A stretch of DNA of 40,843 bases from a virus: the UHGV virus genome UHGV-1472163; one strand, given 5' to 3'. Both the position numbers and the translations under genes were made by a program. Position 1 is the first letter of the stretch. Each line of letters begins with the position of its first letter. The notes under the pieces were generated by a model. It was given only the letters and a program-made list of their open reading frames with translations, had not been told where the DNA came from and ran no database searches. This document shows, in pieces, positions 1 to 40,843 of the stretch.

Positions 1-60
1 ATAAAACATCATGCAGACATATTACCAATATTAATATAAGGTAATAAAAATATAATTTAC

Positions 61-90
61 AAAAAAGCCCGTTGGAAGCGACGGGCATTA
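61..90 (-). terminator. Putative Rho-independent terminator downstream of int
   Basis: Hairpin GCCCGT-N8-ACGGGC preceded on + strand by A6 (T6 on - strand), about 150 bp 3' of the int stop. Confidence 0.4.
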
Positions 91-237
91 ACCGCGGTAA
101 TGGATAAATTATTAATGTTTTTAGATTGTGAACGATATCATATTGTGCGGAAGTAGTGAAGTAACCATGTAGAATGATTGTTTCATAGCCTATGAGACAC
201 ACAAGGCTTTGTGCTCTTCGATAGTTGTTAAGGCGGA

Positions 238-1395
238 TCACTCTACCTTCTCATCAAGCCAATCCGCCCACCACTGCATCATTTCTCTGCGCTTATCGAG
301 ATACTGAGCATGGTTGTAAATCCCACGCACAGATCCGCCGTTGGCATGTGCCAGTTGCACTTCAATAGCGTCAGCAGGCCATTCGTGCTCGTTCATAATC
401 GTGCTGAATTCATGCCTGAATCCGTGACCGCTTTCCAGACCTTCATAGCCGATTTGTTTGATCACAAGCAATACCGCGTTCTCGCAGATTGGTTTCTTCT
501 TATCGTTGCGCCCGGCAAAAACAAACTCTGAGACTGGTTTGGTGATTGAGCTTAGCGTAGTAAGAAGTTCAACCACTTGGTCTGACATAGGAACCACATG
601 AATTTTGCGTCCCTTCATCACACTGGCGTCGATGGTGATAATCCTGTTTTCAAAATCGACGCTCTTCCATTGCATGGAACGAAGCTCTTTCGTTCTTAGG
701 GCTGTGTAGCGTAAGACTTTGGTCGCAATGAGCGATACGATACTTCCTGAAAATGTTGCCAGTGCTTTGTTGAATGCAGGGATCTGGTCTGCTGGAAGAA
801 ACGGGAAGTTCTTCTTGCGGTATCCTTTCATGGCGTCTGCAAGGTCAGGTGCCGGGTTATATTTAGCCCTTCCGGTGACAATAGCGTAACGAAAAACCTC
901 GCCGCATCTTCTGCGGGCTTTATTGGCTCGTTCCATTGCACCGCGATCTTCAAATCTGCGGATTACTTCCAGCAGTTGCATCGGCTCAATATCCTGAATC
1001 TCAAGACCGCCGATGATAGGTAAAATGTCGTCATCAAACATTTTTGCAAGTTCAGTCGCATACCCTACTGACCATACTTGCTTCTTGTGCTCGTACCATT
1101 CTTTGTAAATCGCACTAAAGGAATTGTTGTTAGACGAAGCCTTTTTCGCCTTTACCGGATCGATGCCAACCGAGATGTCTTTCTTCGCGGTCCATGCTTT
1201 ATCTCTTGCCTCCTGCAAAGTCATTAGCGGATATTTTCCTACGGTCAGTATTTTTTCCTTACCGTCAATCTTGTAGCGAAGCTGCCATACCTTTTTCCCT
1301 GATACAGGGACATAAAGATACAGGCCATTACCGTCGAGAAGGCGGTATGGTTTTTCTTTCGGCTTTGCTGCTTCAATCTGCTTAACGGTGAGCAT
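238..1395 (-). CDS. int: Phage integrase, tyrosine recombinase (P4-like family)
   Basis: Track ORF 238..1431 trimmed to in-frame Met13 (MLTVKQIEAAKP...); N-terminal arm-binding-type motif YRLLDGNGLYLYV, C-terminal catalytic region (GHGFRHEF, NHAQYL); sits next to xis at the prophage end. Confidence 0.85.
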   Translation of the reverse strand: MLTVKQIEAAKPKEKPYRLLDGNGLYLYVPVSGKKVWQLRYKIDGKEKILTVGKYPLMTLQEARDKAWTAKKDISVGIDPVKAKKASSNNNSFSAIYKEWYEHKKQVWSVGYATELAKMFDDDILPIIGGLEIQDIEPMQLLEVIRRFEDRGAMERANKARRRCGEVFRYAIVTGRAKYNPAPDLADAMKGYRKKNFPFLPADQIPAFNKALATFSGSIVSLIATKVLRYTALRTKELRSMQWKSVDFENRIITIDASVMKGRKIHVVPMSDQVVELLTTLSSITKPVSEFVFAGRNDKKKPICENAVLLVIKQIGYEGLESGHGFRHEFSTIMNEHEWPADAIEVQLAHANGGSVRGIYNHAQYLDKRREMMQWWADWLDEKVE

Positions 1396-1651
1396 GGGTA
1401 AAAATCCGGTGGGTAAAATTATTTTATCCACTTTTTACCCGTCATGGAGTGCGGCTGTCAACGATCTGACGCGAACCATTACGAACTGTGAATCTACGGA
1501 AGGCTTGATATTCAGGGGATTTTGCGGACTGTTACGGATGGGAGCGAACTGATAAATGGTGTCCCCTGCAGACATCTACTTGAAGCGGCAGGGGATTGAT
1601 TGGAATGGTGTTTTTTAGATGTGAAAAATATTTTACCCGCTATTTTACCCA
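1396..1651. repeat. Five copies of octamer GGGTAAAA/TTTTACCC in the int-xis intergenic region (candidate Int/Xis binding sites)
   Basis: GGGTAAAA at about 1396 and 1411; TTTTACCC at about 1433, 1631 and 1644; all non-coding once int starts at 1395. Confidence 0.4.
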
Positions 1652-1860
1652 TTGGCGCGGCTTAAGAGCTTATTTTTGAATTCACAATGGTCACGATATA
1701 ACCATCTTGCTCGCCCGTGGATAACTTTGGCTTTAGGCAGGTCCCCGGACTTAATCCGGTCATAGATGAAGGTTTTACCAAAGCCAGTATCAGCCATGAT
1801 GAATTTCAAATCAACCAGTGAATCAGGCTGTAGTTCGTGTTGCATGAGTGCTATCTCCAA
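1645..1860 (-). CDS. xis: Excisionase / AlpA-family small DNA-binding protein
   Basis: 71-aa ORF directly upstream of int on the same strand; AlpA/Xis-like helix-turn-helix (ADTGFGKTFIYDRIKSGDLP...ARWL). Confidence 0.7.
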   Translation of the reverse strand: MEIALMQHELQPDSLVDLKFIMADTGFGKTFIYDRIKSGDLPKAKVIHGRARWLYRDHCEFKNKLLSRANG

Positions 1861-32103: not shown

Positions 32104-34211
32104 GTTTACCCGAAGGCTTTGTTCTCGATAATCAGCCTGATAACTCACAGCTTCCTGATGGCTTTGTGCTTGATGCCCAACCAGAACAGCAGCAATCTCC
32201 TTTGGTTTCACCAGAGGAAAATTCCAGACAGGAAAATGTTGTTAATAATGCTAACGGCTTCGACCGTTTTATGTATGGCGTTCTCAGTGGATTGATGGAT
32301 GTTGGTAAAGGTGTTGGCCTGTTTCAGGATATGACACCAGAAGAGCAAGCCGCAATTCAGTCTCTACAGCAGAAGTTAGCGGCAAAACCATCAACCGCAC
32401 AAGATGTTGGTGAGTTTGTTGGACAAGCCGCGCCATTTGTTAGTGGTGGTGGGATTATTTCTCAGGTTCCGAAAGGGGCGGCAAGGCTGGCTGCCGCCGC
32501 AGGGCTTGGTGCTGGAGAAGGGGCTATTGTAGCCAATGGAACAAATAGCGATGTTGCTTCCGGCGCTGCTATTGGCGCTGTGGCTGGCCCTGTAGCCGAG
32601 ATTGTTGGTCCAGCGCTTGGGAAGATTGCAGGAAAAATTAAAAATAGTGCCGGGGATATTTATCGCTCATCCGTAGGGATGGGGAGTAAATCATCTAAAG
32701 CAACGTTAAAGAAAGCTGCTGGCGCAATGGATAATAAATTTATTGGCGGGCAACGAGCTATTCAAGGTTTCGCCGATGAAGTTAATCCTGATTTTAACGC
32801 GATAAATGCCATCCGTGAGCTAGAACTGGAAAATTATGCCACTCCAGGAATGATCTCTAATAATCCTGCTGTCAGGGCTCTTGATAATGCAGTGGCAAGT
32901 CTTCCTGGAACAGAGATTAGTGAGGCGCATAAGCGCTTTATTACTGAATTAGGAAGAAAAGCTGATGAAATGATAACTTCATTTGGGGGAAACCTTGATA
33001 AGCAACTGGTTTCTGACAGGCTTGCAGATAATTTTGATAAAACCATTTCATCATTACAAAATCAGTCAGATAACATCTACAACAAAATTGCCGAAAAGGT
33101 TCCAGTAAGAGACCGTATTGAGGCAACCAATACATTGAATTTTTTAGAGGATTTTGCTGATGACATAGGTGGAATTGATGAATTATCTCCAATAATGAAG
33201 CGGACATTGAACCGACTTGATCCAAACACCTTGCCAACGTATGGGCGTTTAGATCTCGCCAGAAAGCAGGTTGGGCAAGCTATTGGCAAAGGCTCTGGCC
33301 CATTCAAGGATGAAGAAACAGGTGTTCTTAAAAAGTTATATGCAGCTATAACAGATGACCAACAGGCTGTCGCAGAAAAATATGGCGCAGGGGAGTTATG
33401 GACGCTTGGTAAGGAGTTGGTAAAAAAACGAAAATCCATTGAAGATGATGCCGTAACCGTTTTGGGTAGAAAACTTCAGCAATCAGCAATTCCAAAAGTT
33501 GAAAGTGCCGTTGTTAATATGGCAAAAGGAAACGGTGGTGACTTTAGGCAATTAATGAAGTCAATTCCAAAGGATATGCGGCAGGAAGTTGTGCTCACCT
33601 CAATGAATAAAGCATTTACCAGCTATGCTAAATCACCAGGTCAGCAATTAGGGGTTGATGGATTTGTAAAATGGTATAACGGAATATCACGCAATGGGGC
33701 CAATATGAAGACTCTCCGTGATGCTATTGGCACAGATGCATCAAAGCGCCTTGATACGATTTATCAAGCAGCCAAGGCTATGAATAGACTCAATACTGGT
33801 AAGCAGTATGCTAGCAGCCTTGTGGATCAGCAAGTTAATAACTTTCTGAAGGAAAAGGGTAGTCTAGCAAAAATTTATGGAATAGCCTCAAAAGCTGCTG
33901 CGGCGGAAGGTATTACAAGCTTATCTGGTCTTCCTGGTGTAGGTGCAACAGGGGTGATAACGTCCGCATTGATGTCAGGGAAAACAAGCAGGATAAAGGC
34001 TGCTGATGCTCTACTGTCTTCTCCTGAGTTTAAATCAATGCTATTTCGCCTGCAAAACGCACCAGTAGACAGAGCAGAAGTGAGACGCGCAATAGAAAGG
34101 AAACTGATGCAATCTGGGGCATTTAAGAGATGGGAGAAAACCCTATCAACAGATGAAGCAAAAACCATTGCCCGCACGGGGATTATTACATGGCTCGCTA
34201 GTGACAGTTAG
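32088..34211 (+). CDS. Ejection protein (P22 gp16-like)
   Basis: 707-aa ORF; position-based. Confidence 0.65.
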
Positions 34212-34435
34212 TCAACTTTGGTTATTTTGCCTTCTTTTTCTTGATGAACTTTGCATCCATCATCTTTTGATAGCCAAACTAAAAACTTTAAAACCTTAAA
34301 CACAAGTACGGATACTGTAATGAAAGCACCAATTGCAATTATTGCTAGTGAAATTATTTGCATTGGTGCTTTTAATGCAGGGAAAATAGCGTAAATGATC
34401 GCGAAAACAGTAATTATGAGGAACCATCGCTTCAC
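34208..34435 (-). CDS. Hypothetical small membrane protein (about 75 aa, GTG start)
   Basis: Track ORF 34208..34651 trimmed to GTG after AGGAGG; two hydrophobic helices; sieA-like position but much smaller. Confidence 0.4.
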   Translation of the reverse strand: MKRWFLIITVFAIIYAIFPALKAPMQIISLAIIAIGAFITVSVLVFKVLKFLVWLSKDDGCKVHQEKEGKITKVD

Positions 34436-34465
34436 ACCAACCTCCTTAGTTTTGAGCAGGATACC

Positions 34466-34831
34466 ATGAAAAAAGTTAACATTGGAAACGTACCAAAGAT
34501 GCTCGTTCCGCTCTTTGAGAGCGGTACAATTGTGTTTTGTAGAGACTTTCCAGAATGGCAACGCCTGCATCAAAAACTTGGTGTGGACGTGCAGGACTCG
34601 GATGCCAACGGAGCGTCTCATACAATGAGCAGCGAGAATGGTGTTTTGCATGTGATAGGCGTGTTCAATGGCAAACTATCTACTATTGCCCATGAGTGCG
34701 CTCACATGGCATTCGATATCTGCTCAAGGGTCGGTGTTGATGTTGAACCAGGAAGAGCCAATGAGACTTACTGCTACTTAATGAGCAGGCTTGTTGAGTT
34801 CTGCGAGCGACATATCAAAAAGCCGGAGTGA
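34466..34831 (+). CDS. Hypothetical protein with HExxH zinc-metallopeptidase-like motif
   Basis: 121-aa track ORF containing IAHECAHMAFD with downstream Glu (ANETY). Confidence 0.55.
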   Translation: MKKVNIGNVPKMLVPLFESGTIVFCRDFPEWQRLHQKLGVDVQDSDANGASHTMSSENGVLHVIGVFNGKLSTIAHECAHMAFDICSRVGVDVEPGRANETYCYLMSRLVEFCERHIKKPE

Positions 34832-34844
34832 CCCGGCTTGATTA

Positions 34845-35024
34845 TTACTTTTTGCTGTCTGGAGTTCGCTTATCCAATACCCAGCCATGACCTGGCTTTG
34901 TTGTTGGCGGAAGCCTTTCGTTGTCCTTGACGGTGGCAAAATTGTCTTTCTTACCGCCGCGTGGGCCAACTTCTTGGTATATTCCGCCGTTTTTTCCTGT
35001 GTTTTCACCTGGTTTTTTCGCCAT
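34845..35024 (-). CDS. YjzC-like small protein (59 aa)
   Basis: Track ORF trimmed to MAKKPGENTGKNGGIYQEVGPRGGKKDNFATVKDNERLPPTTKPGHGW...; pattern resembles YjzC-family small proteins as recalled. Confidence 0.45.
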   Translation of the reverse strand: MAKKPGENTGKNGGIYQEVGPRGGKKDNFATVKDNERLPPTTKPGHGWVLDKRTPDSKK

Positions 35025-35109
35025 GATATACCTCAACATACACCCGTTATTGGGCGATTAAATATTGATCTCATTTTATGAGTAGTCAATATGGTCCAAA
35101 AAAGGCAAA

Positions 35110-35137
35110 AATTAACCCACCGTCAGGTGGGTTTTTT
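35110..35137. terminator. Putative bidirectional Rho-independent terminator
   Basis: Stem CCCACC/GGTGGG followed by T6 on + strand; overlaps stop of the Mnt-like gene. Confidence 0.45.
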
Positions 35138-35497
35138 GTTGTCATCACCAAGATATTTCTGCTTATATTCCTCTGAAAGAGGAATTGATCTTTCAACCAT
35201 GCTAATAAGTTTATCTACTTGTTTTTTCTGTTTTTCTATGATTTCTAAAAGTTGAGGTATAAGTTTTTCATGCTCGATTTTATCATATTTTCTGTTTATC
35301 GCATCTAGTTGTTCTTTAAACTGCTGAACGATAGGACCATCCTCCGGCCCAAAATCACGACAAACACGAATCGCCAACTCAAGCAGAGTGACAATCTCAG
35401 CATTCATAGAACGATTATTTTGTTTTGATGACGCTTCAATTATTTTTTTTAATTCAACAGGAAGCCTAATCCGAAGTTGAGGGTCTTCTCTACTCAT
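35123..35497 (-). CDS. Mnt/Arc-family ribbon-helix-helix repressor with extended C-terminal coiled coil
   Basis: 124-aa ORF; N-terminus LRIRLPVELKKIIEASSKQNNRSMNAEIVTLLELAI fits RHH pattern; divergent from arc-like gene across palindromic operators. Confidence 0.65.
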   Translation of the reverse strand: MSREDPQLRIRLPVELKKIIEASSKQNNRSMNAEIVTLLELAIRVCRDFGPEDGPIVQQFKEQLDAINRKYDKIEHEKLIPQLLEIIEKQKKQVDKLISMVERSIPLSEEYKQKYLGDDNKKPT

Positions 35498-35537
35498 ACC
35501 ATTAGTCCAAACAGGAAAAATTCACAATAAGTAAATT

Positions 35538-35605
35538 ATGCCCCACGGTGGGGTTGACTTCAATGACGCACGGTGTGACAATTTCAATTGCCCCACAGTG
35601 GGGCT
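35538..35605. promoter_or_regulatory. immI-like control region: two 13-bp palindromic operators flanking a rightward promoter
   Basis: CCCCACGGTGGGG (about 35540-35552) and CCCCACAGTGGGG (about 35590-35602); TTGACT-17-GACAAT with TG extension between them; AAGGAG SD before arc-like ATG. Confidence 0.55.
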
Positions 35606-35619
35606 ATTTAAGGAGTGGA

Positions 35620-35787
35620 GATGGAAAAAGCAAAAGACATGTATCAACGCAAGGTTCGTTTCCCAGAGGATGTAAGGAAGGCGATTGAAAGAAATGGAGA
35701 AAAAGAGTGTCGACAGTTCAACACGGAACTTATTTATCAATTGAGAAAAGTGTACGGACTGATTGGAGAGAAGAATGCTAGGACATA
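35620..35787 (+). CDS. arc: Arc-like ribbon-helix-helix regulator (55 aa)
   Basis: Hand-translated ORF MEKAKDMYQRKVRFPEDVRKAIERNGEKECRQFNTELIYQLRKVYGLIGEKNART; RHH pattern; first gene of rightward immI-like operon. Confidence 0.6.
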
Positions 35788-35861
35788 AAAATAGTGAAGC
35801 CCGGCAGTGCGCGAACACAAACCGGGCCTCTATGTCAGTAACCGTATGCAAGGAAACTAAC

Positions 35862-36488
35862 ATGAATATTGTAGCAAAATCAGATTACAACTTCCACGGA
35901 GTTGAGTTGGTGCCCACCCGTGATATGCATGGTGTTTGGTTTACATCATCTAATATTGCATCTGCACTTAAATACGCAAATAGTCGTGCAGTAACAATGA
36001 TTTATAACAAGTATAGCGATGAGTTTAGCGCCGGAATGACTCAGGTACTCGAAGTGAGTACCTCAGGAAATTATCGCAAAAAAGTGCGAGTTTTCTCACT
36101 ACGCGGTGCCCACCTAATCGCGATGTTTGCTCGCACTCCGGTAGCCAAAGAGTTCCGCCGCTGGGTGCTGGATATTTTGGATCGGCAGGCAGAATGCTCA
36201 CCGATTGCAAAACAGTTTACTGACGAAGAACTGGTTAATCTCTGCTACTTACAATTGTGGATGGAGAAGAGTCAACAAATGTGCAAACACATCTACCCAG
36301 GAATGAAGCAAATTTGTTCTGAGCTTTCAGGAAGGATTTACGATATCGCATATGAGACTCGCTATATGTCAGAAGAAACCAAGAAATCACTTCTTCGTGA
36401 AATGAAGAATCTTGATACCAACAATTTTGTCGTAAAGAACGCTCAGCCAATGCTGGCAAAACTGCGCGGCGAGGAATGGATTCATTGA
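35862..36488 (+). CDS. ant: Antirepressor with Bro-N/KilA-N-type domain
   Basis: 208-aa ORF from Met34 of track ORF (MNIVAKSDYNFHGVELV...); AAGGAA SD; position after arc as in P22 immI. Confidence 0.7.
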   Translation: MNIVAKSDYNFHGVELVPTRDMHGVWFTSSNIASALKYANSRAVTMIYNKYSDEFSAGMTQVLEVSTSGNYRKKVRVFSLRGAHLIAMFARTPVAKEFRRWVLDILDRQAECSPIAKQFTDEELVNLCYLQLWMEKSQQMCKHIYPGMKQICSELSGRIYDIAYETRYMSEETKKSLLREMKNLDTNNFVVKNAQPMLAKLRGEEWIH

Positions 36489-36576
36489 TTGGTGCGCCGG
36501 ACGGCGCAAAAAGAAAACCGCCAGTGTGCTGCTGGCGGCCTATGTCACACCCTTACTACCACATAAGGAATGCCTA

Positions 36577-37305
36577 ATGACTTTTAAGAATGTAGCAAAC
36601 ATCGGATCCGTTGTCACGGATAAAACCATTGACAGCCAGCGCCTGCTTGAGATGGTAAATCAGGCTCGTAGACAGTGCGGTGAGCCGGAGGTTCGTAATA
36701 ACAAATTCATCGAGAAAATTGAAGATGAATTGGATGGAGAGCACTACACAAAAAGTGTAGTGCAAAAAGCGAACAAAACTTCGATGGTTATCATTGAGAT
36801 GTCAATCAAGCAAGCATTGCGAGTTGCCGCTCGCGAGTCAAAAGCCGTTCGCCGCTCACTGGTAGACCAACTTGAAAGTATGCAAGAAGCGCACATTAAA
36901 AGCGGTAAATCAGCGAGTGGACTTGTTGAGTATCGTCAAGCGCGAACATTGAAAATGACGGTTGAAGCTGTTACCAATCTGTTCGATCTGATGCCAAATC
37001 TTGCGCCTGAGGCAAAGCAGACAGCGGCAGCAAGTATAATCAACCCGCTTGTTGGTTTTAATGCAATACCTCTTCCGGCAATAGAAGAGCATTACTACTC
37101 AGCAGGGGAGGTTGCAGAGCAGCTTGGAGTAACGGCCAACAAGATTGGTCGCATTGCTAACGCAAACAACCTCAAAACTGAGCAGTACGGGAAGTTCTTC
37201 CTGGATAAATCGGCGCATTCCAGCAAACAGGTAGAGGCGTTCCGTTACAATTCTGAAGGCGTTAAAGCACTACAACACCTGCTACATGGCTCAAATGTGG
37301 CGTAA
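36577..37305 (+). CDS. Second antirepressor-like protein (KilAC-like C-terminal domain)
   Basis: 242-aa ORF from Met18 of track ORF (MTFKNVANIGS...); C-terminus YYSAGEVAEQLGVTANKIGRIANANNL... KilAC-like by eye. Confidence 0.55.
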   Translation: MTFKNVANIGSVVTDKTIDSQRLLEMVNQARRQCGEPEVRNNKFIEKIEDELDGEHYTKSVVQKANKTSMVIIEMSIKQALRVAARESKAVRRSLVDQLESMQEAHIKSGKSASGLVEYRQARTLKMTVEAVTNLFDLMPNLAPEAKQTAAASIINPLVGFNAIPLPAIEEHYYSAGEVAEQLGVTANKIGRIANANNLKTEQYGKFFLDKSAHSSKQVEAFRYNSEGVKALQHLLHGSNVA

Positions 37306-37321
37306 CATTTTATAATGAAAA

Positions 37322-37350
37322 CTAAACCCGCTTAATCGCGGGTTTTTTCT
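37322..37350. terminator. Bidirectional Rho-independent terminator
   Basis: AACCCGC-TTAAT-CGCGGGTT hairpin followed by T6; overlaps the convergent stop of the Mnt-like gene. Confidence 0.5.
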
Positions 37351-37589
37351 TTCCTTAGAATTTCAGCCGCAACTTCTTTTACTCGTTCCGAGATTAATGA
37401 GGCCAGCCTCTCTTCTTCATCACGATACCCGCTTACAGGTGATGGTTTGGAGAGTGATTCTTCCATCGTAGCCACAATTTCGGAATTGATAGACCTGTTA
37501 TTCATTTTTGCACGCTGCTTAATCTTAGCGTGCAACTCGTGTGTAAGCCTCAAGTGGAACTGCGCCTCATCGTATTTGCTGTACATCAT
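37332..37589 (-). CDS. mnt: Mnt-like repressor (P22 Mnt type)
   Basis: 85-aa ORF (C-terminal part of track ORF 37332..37985): NNRSINSEIVATMEESLSKPSPVSGYRDEEERLA matches P22 Mnt NGRSMNSELLQIVQDALSKPSPVTGYRNDAERLA as recalled. Confidence 0.7.
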   Translation of the reverse strand: MMYSKYDEAQFHLRLTHELHAKIKQRAKMNNRSINSEIVATMEESLSKPSPVSGYRDEEERLASLISERVKEVAAEILRKEKTRD

Positions 37590-37721
37590 CAATGCCTCAC
37601 CAAATGGGTGGAATGGCATCGTAAAACCTACTGTACAAATCAACAATCGTACCGTTTCGGTATGTAATAAATGCCAACCGTAGCCATGCTGCGGCGATTC
37701 CTTGTATCTGGAGCAAATTAA

Positions 37722-40667
37722 ATGACAGACATTACAGCCAATGTTGTAGTGAGTATGCCTTCGCAACTCTTCACTATGGCGCGTTCTTTTAAAGCCGTAG
37801 CTAATGGCAAAATTTATATCGGTAAAATTGACACTGACCCGGTAAATCCTGAAAACCAGATTCAGGTCTATGTTGAGAACGAAGATGGTTCTCACGTTCC
37901 TGTTTCGCAACCAATCATCATTAACGCCGCTGGATATCCGGTATATAACGGACAGATTGCCAAGTTCGTAACCGTGCAAGGCCATTCTATGGCTGTTTAT
38001 GATGCGTATGGTACACAGCAGTTCTATTTTCCGAATGTGCTGAAGTATGATCCTGATCAGTTACGGCAGCAATTAGAAGACCCAGATGGAGCGAATAAAT
38101 ACCCAAAACTTCAGATAGCAAGATGGAGAGACAGTTATGATGTAAGAGGTTGGGGGGCTATTGGTGATGGTGTTCATGATGATACATCAGCTCTATCAGA
38201 ATTACTTTCTGTTGCAACAGGTGGTGAAAAGATAGATGGGCGAGGGCTTACTTTTAAAGTATCAACTCTTCCAGATGTCAGTCGATTTAAAAATGCTCGT
38301 TTTTTATTTGAGAGAATACCGGGTCAGCCTCTTTTTTATGCTTCTGAAGATTTTATCCAGGGAGAGTTATTTAAAATTACAGATACACCGTGGTACAACG
38401 CCTGGACGCAGGATAAAACGTTTGTATATGACAATGTCATCTATGCGCCTTTTATGGCTGGAGACCGCCATGGTGTAAATAACCTCCATGTTGCATGGGT
38501 TCGCTCAGGAGATGACGGGAAGACCTGGACAACGCCGGAATGGCTTACAGATTTACATGAAAACTATCCCACAGTTAACTATCACTGCATGAGTATGGGG
38601 GTTGTCAGAAATCGCCTTTTTGCTGTAATTGAGACGCGGACCGTGAGCGGAAATAAACTGCAGGTTGCAGAGTTGTGGGATCGCCCAATGAGTCGCAGCC
38701 TTCGCGTTTATGGTGGTATAACGAAAGCAGCAAATCAGCAAGTCGCTTATATTCGCATTACTGATCACGGATTATTTGCTGGTGATTTTGTCAACTTCTC
38801 AAACTCTGGTGTTACAGGTGTTACCGGGAATATGACGGTGACTACTGTTATTGATAAAAATACTTTTACAGTTACGACGCAAAATACCCAGGATGTGGAT
38901 CAGAATAACGAGGGTAGATACTGGAGTTTTGGTACATCATTTCACTCGTCACCATGGAGAAAAACCAGTCTTGGAACTATTCCTTCTTTTGTTGACGGAA
39001 GCACTCCTGTTACTGAGATTCACAGTTTTGCGACGATTAGCGATAACAGTTTTGCTGTTGGCTACCATAATGGTGATATTGGCCCACGCGAGCTTGGGAT
39101 ACTCTATTTCTCTGATGCTTTCGGTTCTCCTGGTAGCTTTGTTCGCAGACGCATACCTGCAGAATATGAGGCGAATGCATCTGAGCCATGTGTAAAATAT
39201 TATGATGGCATTCTGTATCTGACGACCAGGGGGACATTAAGTACTCAACCCGGTAGTTCATTGCACAGAAGCTCTGATTTAGGTACATCATGGAATTCTC
39301 TTCGCTTCCCAAATAATGTTCATCACTCAAACCTTCCTTTTGCCAAAGTTGGCGATGAGCTGATTATTTTTGGCAGTGAGCGCGCATTTGGTGAGTGGGA
39401 AGGAGGAGAACCTGATAACCGTTATGCAGGAAATTATCCAAGAACATTTATGACCAGAGTTAACGTCAATGAGTGGAGTCTGGATAATGTAGAGTGGGTT
39501 AATGTTACTGATCAGATTTATCAGGGCGGAATAGTTAACTCTGCGGTTGGTGTTGGTTCAGTTTGTATCAAAGACAACTGGCTGTACTACATTTTCGGTG
39601 GGGAAGACTTTCTAAACCCATGGAGCATAGGGGATAACAACAGAAAATATCCTTATGTTCACGATGGTCACCCGGCTGATTTGTATTGTTTCAGGGTGAA
39701 AATTAAACAGGAAGAATTTGTTTCAAGGGATTTTGTCTACGGAGCCACTCCTAACAGAACGCTTCCTACTTTTATGTCGACGTCAGGCGTGAGGACGGTT
39801 CCTGTACCCGTTGATTTCACAGATGATGTTGCCGTCCAGTCACTGACTGTCCATGCAGGTACATCAGGACAAGTTCGCGCGGAAGTCAAACTTGAGGGTA
39901 ATTACGCCATTATTGCGAAGAAAGTACCGTCTGATGATGTTACCGCTCAGAGATTAATCGTTAGCGGCGGTGAAACAACGTCTTCAGCAGATGGTGCAAT
40001 GATAACGTTGCATGGTTCCGGAAGCAGTACTCCACGTCGCGCGGTATATAACGCACTCGAACATCTTTTTGAGAACGGAGATGTTAAACCTTATCTTGAT
40101 AATGTAAATGCTCTTGGTGGTCCGGGAAACAGGTTCTCGACAGTTTATCTTGGCTCCAATCCTGTGGTTACCAGTGACGGAACATTAAAGACAGAGCCGG
40201 TCTCTCCTGACGAAGAATTGCTGGATGCCTGGGGTGACGTCAGGTATATCGCTTATAAATGGCTGAACGCTGTCGCTATAAAGGGGGAAGAAGGGGCGAG
40301 GATACATCATGGTGTAATCGCGCAGCAACTTCGTGATGTTCTTATTTCTCACGGACTCATGGAAGAAGAAAGCACAACATGCCGCTATGCCTTTCTTTGC
40401 TATGACGATTATCCCGCAGTATATGATGACGTCATTACTGGCCAAAGGGAAATGCCGCTGACTGATAATGACGGGAGCATCATTGTTGATGAGGATGATA
40501 ATCCAGTGATGGTAATGGAAGACATCATTGAGCGCGTTGAAATAACGCCAGCAGGATCTAGATGGGGGGTCAGACCTGATCTCTTATTCTATATCGAGGC
40601 GGCATGGCAGCGCAGAGAAATAGAAAGAATAAAAGCTAGGTTAGACTTAATAGAAGGGAAGCACTAA
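37722..40667 (+). CDS. Tailspike: P22-type head-binding N-terminus fused to endosialidase-like domain with C-terminal chaperone domain
   Basis: 981-aa ORF; N-terminal about 125 aa match P22 gp9 head-binding domain as recalled; two sialidase Asp-box motifs ([16 protein letters not shown]); C-terminus with SDGTLK Ser-Lys region resembling S74 chaperone domain. Confidence 0.85.
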
Positions 40668-40820
40668 ATGTTTCGTTGGCGTCAAAAATATGAACTGCTC
40701 ACATAAAGAAGTAAGTACATTGGCAAAAAACATTGACGTCAACGAAATTAAATATAAAAATTTAAATGCTTTTTAATGACAAGAAAAGTAACTAGTGGTA
40801 AAATAACGTAGGATACTAAT

Positions 40821-40843
40821 ATGTCAAGACTCAAGACTCAAGA
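40821..40843 (+). CDS. neuO: 5' end of neuO-like phase-variable polysialic acid O-acetyltransferase gene (truncated by window end)
   Basis: ATG followed immediately by tandem AAGACTC heptads, downstream of an endosialidase tailspike; only 23 nt visible. Confidence 0.5.
40826..40843 (+). repeat. AAGACTC heptanucleotide tandem repeat (two full copies plus partial third, continues beyond window)
   Basis: Read directly: AAGACTC AAGACTC AAGA starting 3 nt after ATG. Confidence 0.6.

Follow-up and report, generated by a model that had tools for sequence, protein, structure and literature searches.

The 5′ end of a neuO-type gene and its heptad repeat tract at the right edge of a CUS-3-like phage genome

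The last 23 nt of the window, by which we mean the whole 40,843-nt stretch of phage DNA analysed here, very probably form the beginning of neuO, a cargo gene that encodes the polysialic-acid O-acetyltransferase in a CUS-3-like, P22-like temperate phage of E. coli K1. Read directly, positions 40810-40843 consist of AGGATACTAAT followed by ATG, TC, two AAGACTC units and a final AAGA at the window edge. The sequence-only reading had placed a neuO-like start codon at 40821 with tandem AAGACTC units behind it; the coordinate is exact, with the ATG occupying 40821-40823, and after the TC two full units and AAGA indeed run up to the edge. A tandem AAGACTC tract that begins two nt past the start codon is how the variable-number tandem repeat (VNTR) of neuO has been defined (PMC3046976), and this arrangement is what is found at 40821-40843, where 18 nt of repeat (about 2.6 units) can be seen and the sequence translates, in the frame of the ATG, as M S R L K T Q (D/E). 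The accompanying caution about repeat number and reading frame also holds for the window, which displays two full units and 4 nt. The features at this end of the window are given below.

37722..40667, plus strand: endosialidase tailspike gene of siaK1 type, 981 aa (ORF list and Pfam; annotated as siaK1 in CUS-3)
40668..40820, plus strand: siaK1-neuO intergenic region, 153 nt, 100% conserved in three relatives (L019, L020 and L021)
40776-40804, plus strand: promoter-like site with ATGACA, a 17-nt spacer, TAAAAT and a TG motif (consensus scan, a pattern match only)
40810-40813, plus strand: Shine-Dalgarno-like AGGA, 7 nt 5′ of the ATG (direct reading)
40821..40825, plus strand: neuO ATG and the TC that precedes the repeat tract (direct reading)
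40826..40843, plus strand: start of the neuO poly(psi) VNTR, namely the first two full AAGACTC units and AAGA, the rest being cut by the window edge (direct reading)

The product of the ORF at 37722..40667 is an endosialidase tailspike whose head-binding domain is of P22 type. It matches the Pfam families Head_binding, End_N_terminal, End_beta_propel (E 1e-233), End_beta_barrel, End_tail_spike and Peptidase_S74, and an exact-protein look-up finds the identical protein in 178 blocks of public assemblies. An endosialidase-type tailspike directly upstream had been part of the sequence-only reading, and this ORF, 153 nt away from the start codon, agrees with it. The likeness to neuO of CUS-3, proposed on the same occasion, is borne out by the phage record (CP000711.1), which matches the last 1 kb of the window at 99.3% identity and is annotated with siaK1 and then, exactly at the window end, with a repeat_region carrying gene=neuO and described as a poly(psi) domain of 19 copies of AAGACTC. 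An identical phage record was not found in INPHARED, where the best match is phiv205-1 with 99.7% identity over 1 kb. Among complete E. coli genomes, 194 of 5,426 match the last 501 nt, 15 of them at 100%, and the gene order in the matching genomes is tailspike, acyl/acetyltransferase, intS, tRNA-Arg and yfdC. The gene at the window end thus lies between the endosialidase tailspike and int of an argW-integrating CUS-3-type phage, the same order as in CUS-3 and in these E. coli genomes. In addition, the terminal 39-mer of the window is carried by 15 IMG/VR contigs.

By itself a repeat of 2.6 copies would be weak evidence. The two-unit string AAGACTCAAGACTC, with at most one mismatch allowed, occurs once in the window against an expectation of 0.02 from shuffles, and 2 of 100 window shuffles contained one match to the two-unit pattern; with 18 nt of repeat in view, the ATG and heptads might on these figures be a chance match devoid of function. 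Against this, many genomes have neuO loci that agree at 100% with the ATG, the tract and the 153 nt upstream, and the placement with respect to the tailspike and int is canonical. We regard the probability of a chance match as practically nil, and the identity data rule it out. It is the genomic context that, judged from sequence, makes the assignment to neuO secure, because the flanks are identical to those of relatives in which the tract extends into a long array of AAGACTC units.

The last 8,122 nt of the window (32722-40843) are 100% identical to the corresponding stretches of L019, L020 and L021. Two of these relatives, the E. coli assemblies L019 (ENA ERZ1743289) and L020 (GCA_045109025.1), were reached by the exact-protein look-up of the tailspike; both are in prophage form, and both are also 100% identical to window positions 1-1571. 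Between the two identical stretches they hold an intact neuO, with 3 heptads in L019 and 12 in L020 and with ORFs of 223 and 244 aa, respectively. The rightward extension and heptad count that the sequence-only reading had put forward as a check were in this way carried out on relatives with 100% identical flanks, and the acetyltransferase that it expected past the tract is there. The 648-nt post-repeat bodies of L019 and L020 are the same, and differ at 2 nt from the CUS-3 body and at 1 nt from that of a further relative, L002. The 30-unit allele of L002 specifies a product of 286 aa that begins with MS(RLKTQDS)x10 and matches Pfam Hexapep above its cut-off. In the PDB its match is 3JQY (‘Polysialic acid O-acetyltransferase’; E 2.5e-160), from which it departs by one conservative change in 242 aligned residues; it also matches OatWY of N. 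meningitidis (2WLC) at E 7e-31 and many further hexapeptide acetyltransferases. The body 3′ of the tract in these relatives is accordingly identified as the hexapeptide-repeat acetyltransferase NeuO, and we infer that the molecule from which the window derives likewise carries an intact neuO past the window edge. There, n AAGACTC units would be followed by GTTTTCCGTTGATG and then by a NeuO body of 216 codons, with 2 nt between its end and window base 1.

P22-like phages are mosaic, any single relative shares only about 50-70% of the window length, and cargo genes are known to occupy the slot between tailspike and int. The visible heptads could on these grounds be a poly(psi) leader that has been recombined onto a different cargo gene 3′ of the tailspike. 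We consider this exceedingly improbable, since the neuO body comes next in all 16 loci, drawn from three collections, that have a complete tract at this anchor, and a query that contains the neuO body aligns over its whole length with each of the 60 E. coli genomes listed. Moreover, the first 237 nt of the window are the 3′ flank of neuO itself, 100% identical to L019 and L020. At the opposite end of the window, base 1 is the third base past the neuO TAA stop (2 nt lie between), and by BLAST positions 1-1571 directly follow neuO in L001, L002, L003, L019 and L020. This end carries the following features.

1..237, plus strand: neuO 3′ flank (BLAST)
67-86, minus strand: terminator-like hairpin with its T-run on the minus strand, downstream of int (terminator scan)
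238..1395, minus strand: integrase of IntS type, 385 aa from its ATG, convergent with neuO (phrog_1, E 3.5e-80; intS in E. coli genomes)
1557..1571, no strand assigned: attP core, 15 nt equal to the 3′ end of tRNA-Arg (argW) (alignment; L002 tRNA-Arg coordinates)
1645..1860, minus strand: xis-like gene (PHROG excisionase match)

The mechanical integrase ORF runs on to 1431. The attP core comprises the last 15 nt common to the window and the integrated prophage; past 1571 the window goes into phage DNA, with the xis-like gene, RecT and further early genes, and not into host chromosome. Scanning the window for tRNA genes gave no match, in keeping with an attP that holds only the 3′ 15 nt of argW. 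The same attP junction is present in the IMG/VR contig L010, which carries neuO with 8 units between the tailspike and the 3′ flank. Across the window, PHROG matches were obtained for an integrase, excisionase, RecT, repressor, DnaB-like helicase, large terminase, portal, major head protein, DNA transfer protein and anti-repressor. The combination of P22-type morphogenesis and ejection genes, a tailspike head-binding domain, a lambdoid early region and an integrase is that of a Lederbergvirus, and the best DNA matches of the window are CUS-3, HK620, Sf6 and Kapi1. None of the complete RefSeq E. coli genomes covers more than 71% of its last 25 kb. Because base 1 lies just past the neuO stop and the order runs int, attP, xis and onwards to the tailspike, the window is a circularly permuted, excised-form CUS-3-like P22-like genome, missing only the rest of neuO (630 + 7n nt).

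The same geometry can be read in another way: the window could be a complete and circular phage genome that has lost neuO by deletion and retains the ATG and 2.6 heptads, a natural phase-locked OFF variant. Both edges flank neuO exactly, the left 2 nt past its stop and the right 23 nt from its start, and the order of the window is that of an attP (excised or circular) form. If its ends were joined directly, they would read ATG TCA AGA CTC AAG ACT CAA GAA TAA, an 8-codon ORF. The 30-nt head-to-tail junction that such a molecule would contain is absent from IMG/VR and JGI metagenome contigs, a negative of little weight, since a circular contig, once linearised, lacks the junction of its own ends. 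neuO is, however, present in all relatives whose flanks are identical, and the points at which a deletion would have begun and ended are read to share no bases. Further short-read contigs, moreover, end in the same tract: L021 stops 2 nt past the window end and L022 at ATG+1, and the IMG/VR contigs L005, L008 and L013-L016 end in the AAGACTC tract after 9-13 units. We therefore think a deletion very unlikely. Since other contigs stop in the same tract, the right edge of the window looks like an ordinary assembly break at the VNTR, and an intact neuO cut by that break remains our preferred reading.

The argW site itself yielded further observations. A complete genome, NZ_CP082824.1 (H133, H198), matches window positions 1-1700 across an attP-type junction (intS, then torI/xis) at 96.8%, which suggests that this strain may carry tandem or adjacent argW prophages. 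Exact look-up of the xis-like protein returned ubiquitous argW prophages that adjoin D-serine utilisation genes. In L146-L149, L152 and L154 the xis-like end of the argW prophage (the attR side) adjoins genes for a LysR-type regulator, a GntP-family permease and a PALP-family enzyme, which we take to be dsdC, dsdX and dsdA. DsdC, a regulator reported to activate neuO (PMC9659370), would be encoded beside the opposite prophage end from neuO.

The mechanism by which such a locus switches has been described in detail. Slipped-strand mispairing in replication adds or removes heptads, mostly one unit per change, and only multiples of three units give full-length, active NeuO (ON), while other counts lead to an early stop (OFF) (PMC3046976). 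Only when n is a multiple of three does the acetyltransferase body stay in frame, because 7 is not divisible by 3. Each three units encode one RLKTQDS heptad in ON alleles; the resulting poly(psi) domain is disordered in the NeuO crystal, and the catalytic efficiency of NeuO grows linearly with heptad number (PMC3046976, from which the enzymology is taken as cited there). The switching of K1 capsule O-acetylation between ON and OFF at high frequency is an experimental result, from fragment analysis and mass spectrometry, and O-acetylation shields the cell from K1 phage and neutrophils and raises its serum sensitivity (PMC13001214).

Phase variation by heptad number, which the sequence-only reading had claimed for this locus, fits what the relatives display and what the literature describes, in that strains differ in count and the frame is open only at multiples of three. 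Among the IMG/VR and GenBank alleles read directly, which have 8 to 32 units, a full-length ORF was found only at n = 9, 12, 18 and 30. In every such allele the full-length ORF is thus present only if n is a multiple of three, a rule that is read from relatives and not from this molecule. The full-length neuO ORF has 216 + 7n/3 aa, n being the unit count, and other counts give 22-94 aa.

Tracts were also sized with a repeat-less query, composed of the upstream region, ATGTC, the neuO body and the 3′ flank, from the span of its match in 60 complete E. coli genomes. The insert is an exact multiple of 7 nt in 59 of the 60, corresponding to 5-53 units with a median of 20, and the unit count is divisible by three in 20 of these 59. 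Over the 59 complete genomes and about 20 loci, the tract ranges from 3 to 53 units. These counts agree with the published survey of 64 genomes, which gave 3-53 repeats and 65.6% OFF (PMC13001214), and for strain MS7163 the 21 units counted here equal the 21 confirmed by Sanger sequencing and fragment analysis in that study. Three isolates of the poultry outbreak strain 729 (L143, L144 and L145; NZ_CP160125/121/116) have 19, about 32 and 14 units, respectively, the tract of about 32 units being interrupted and 225 nt long. These isolates appear to illustrate fast tract change, and would thereby lend indirect support to switching. The tracts of SCU-123 and SCU-108 differ as well, with 35 and 25 heptads.

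Annotation pipelines label OFF alleles inconsistently. Out-of-phase neuO appears in RefSeq as a 111-aa ‘acyltransferase’ from an internal start in L003, L143 and L145 and as a partial pseudogene in L144, whereas in-phase alleles are given as a full-length ‘acetyltransferase’; the CUS-3 record has no neuO CDS and marks the repeat_region only. Short-read assemblies break at the neuO VNTR, and the phase state is therefore usually unreadable from such contigs.

The heptamer is not confined to this setting. A scan of GTDB species representatives found exact (AAGACTC)x4 in at least 120 stretches (L023-L142) from very diverse phyla, often several per genome, with no neuO among the matches listed. Holders of such arrays among these matches include Planctomycetota, Acidobacteriota, Bacteroidota and Balneolaceae; a Methylococcales sponge symbiont has them on at least 10 contigs and the Acidobacteria MAG SZAS-13 on at least 13. 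The listed arrays mix the related heptamers AAGACTA, AGGACTC and AAGGCTC, many are not within an ORF of at least 80 aa, and 17 of 121 arrays among the matches listed stop no more than 30 nt from the start of a downstream ORF. One match in an ‘Enterobacteriaceae’ MAG (L064) was considered as a possible neuO and rejected, being GC-rich and having no acetyltransferase after the tract. We conclude that the GTDB heptamer arrays listed are unrelated to neuO by descent. In the searchable literature AAGACTC was found as a repeat only in the context of neuO, the other match being an unrelated cell-biology paper.

In biological terms neuO is a textbook mobile contingency locus, through which the phage gives its K1 host a stochastic, graded switch for capsule O-acetylation. 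O-acetylation influences immunogenicity, killing by neutrophils, sensitivity to serum and the susceptibility of the cell to K1-specific phages (PMC13001214, PMC9659370). The presence of neuO at the window end identifies the window as a converting phage of CUS-3 type, with a host from an E. coli K1 lineage, and adds nothing new about the neuO locus itself.

The locus at the window end can be compared with neuO of CUS-3 in E. coli K1 RS218 (Deszo et al. 2005, as cited in PMC3046976). The two are alike in the intergenic region, the start codon, a tract that begins two bases past the ATG, the place of the gene between siaK1 and int, and the use of argW as integration site. They are also alike in the inferred mechanism, in which the frame is set by heptad number. 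The second codon of neuO is TCA (Ser) in the window (40824-40826) and in many genomes, but TTA (Leu) in RS218 CUS-3 (L001 3982-3984) and in several IMG/VR contigs. In RS218 the CUS-3 tract numbers 19 units (OFF). Outside this locus the phage is a mosaic when set against CUS-3: of its first 25 kb, about 51% aligns, at 97% identity. The window is in attP order, whereas the CUS-3 record is in prophage order. Taken together, the window end is very probably the already known neuO contingency locus of CUS-3-type prophages, with the same sequence, position and inferred mechanism, and the departures from the RS218 reference are limited to Ser or Leu at codon 2 and the mosaic remainder of the phage.

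Related phages fill the same slot beside the tailspike and int/att with other cargo. Sf6 oac and P22 gtrABC modify, from that position, the surface polysaccharide that the phage's own tailspike recognises. They belong to other families than NeuO, Sf6 oac being a membrane acyltransferase-3 and P22 gtrABC a glucosyltransferase module, and they are not known to be under VNTR control in the coding region. At the level of the enzyme, the comparison is with OatWY of N. meningitidis serogroups W-135 and Y (2WLC), which like NeuO is a left-handed beta-helix hexapeptide acetyltransferase acting on a sialic-acid capsule. Unlike neuO, the OatWY gene lacks a poly(psi) VNTR leader, and it is chromosomal, lying in the capsule locus and not carried as phage cargo. 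Active-site residues are conserved between NeuO and OatWY (PMC3046976).

At the level of the switch, neuO follows the same logic as the contingency loci of Haemophilus influenzae and Neisseria, although its repeat unit is 7 nt. Those loci carry tetranucleotide or homopolymer tracts in the 5′ coding region, where slippage shifts the frame and toggles a surface-modifying enzyme. In neuO, in addition, translation of the in-frame repeats yields a functional N-terminal extension by which activity is tuned, and the locus is phage-borne (PMC3046976).
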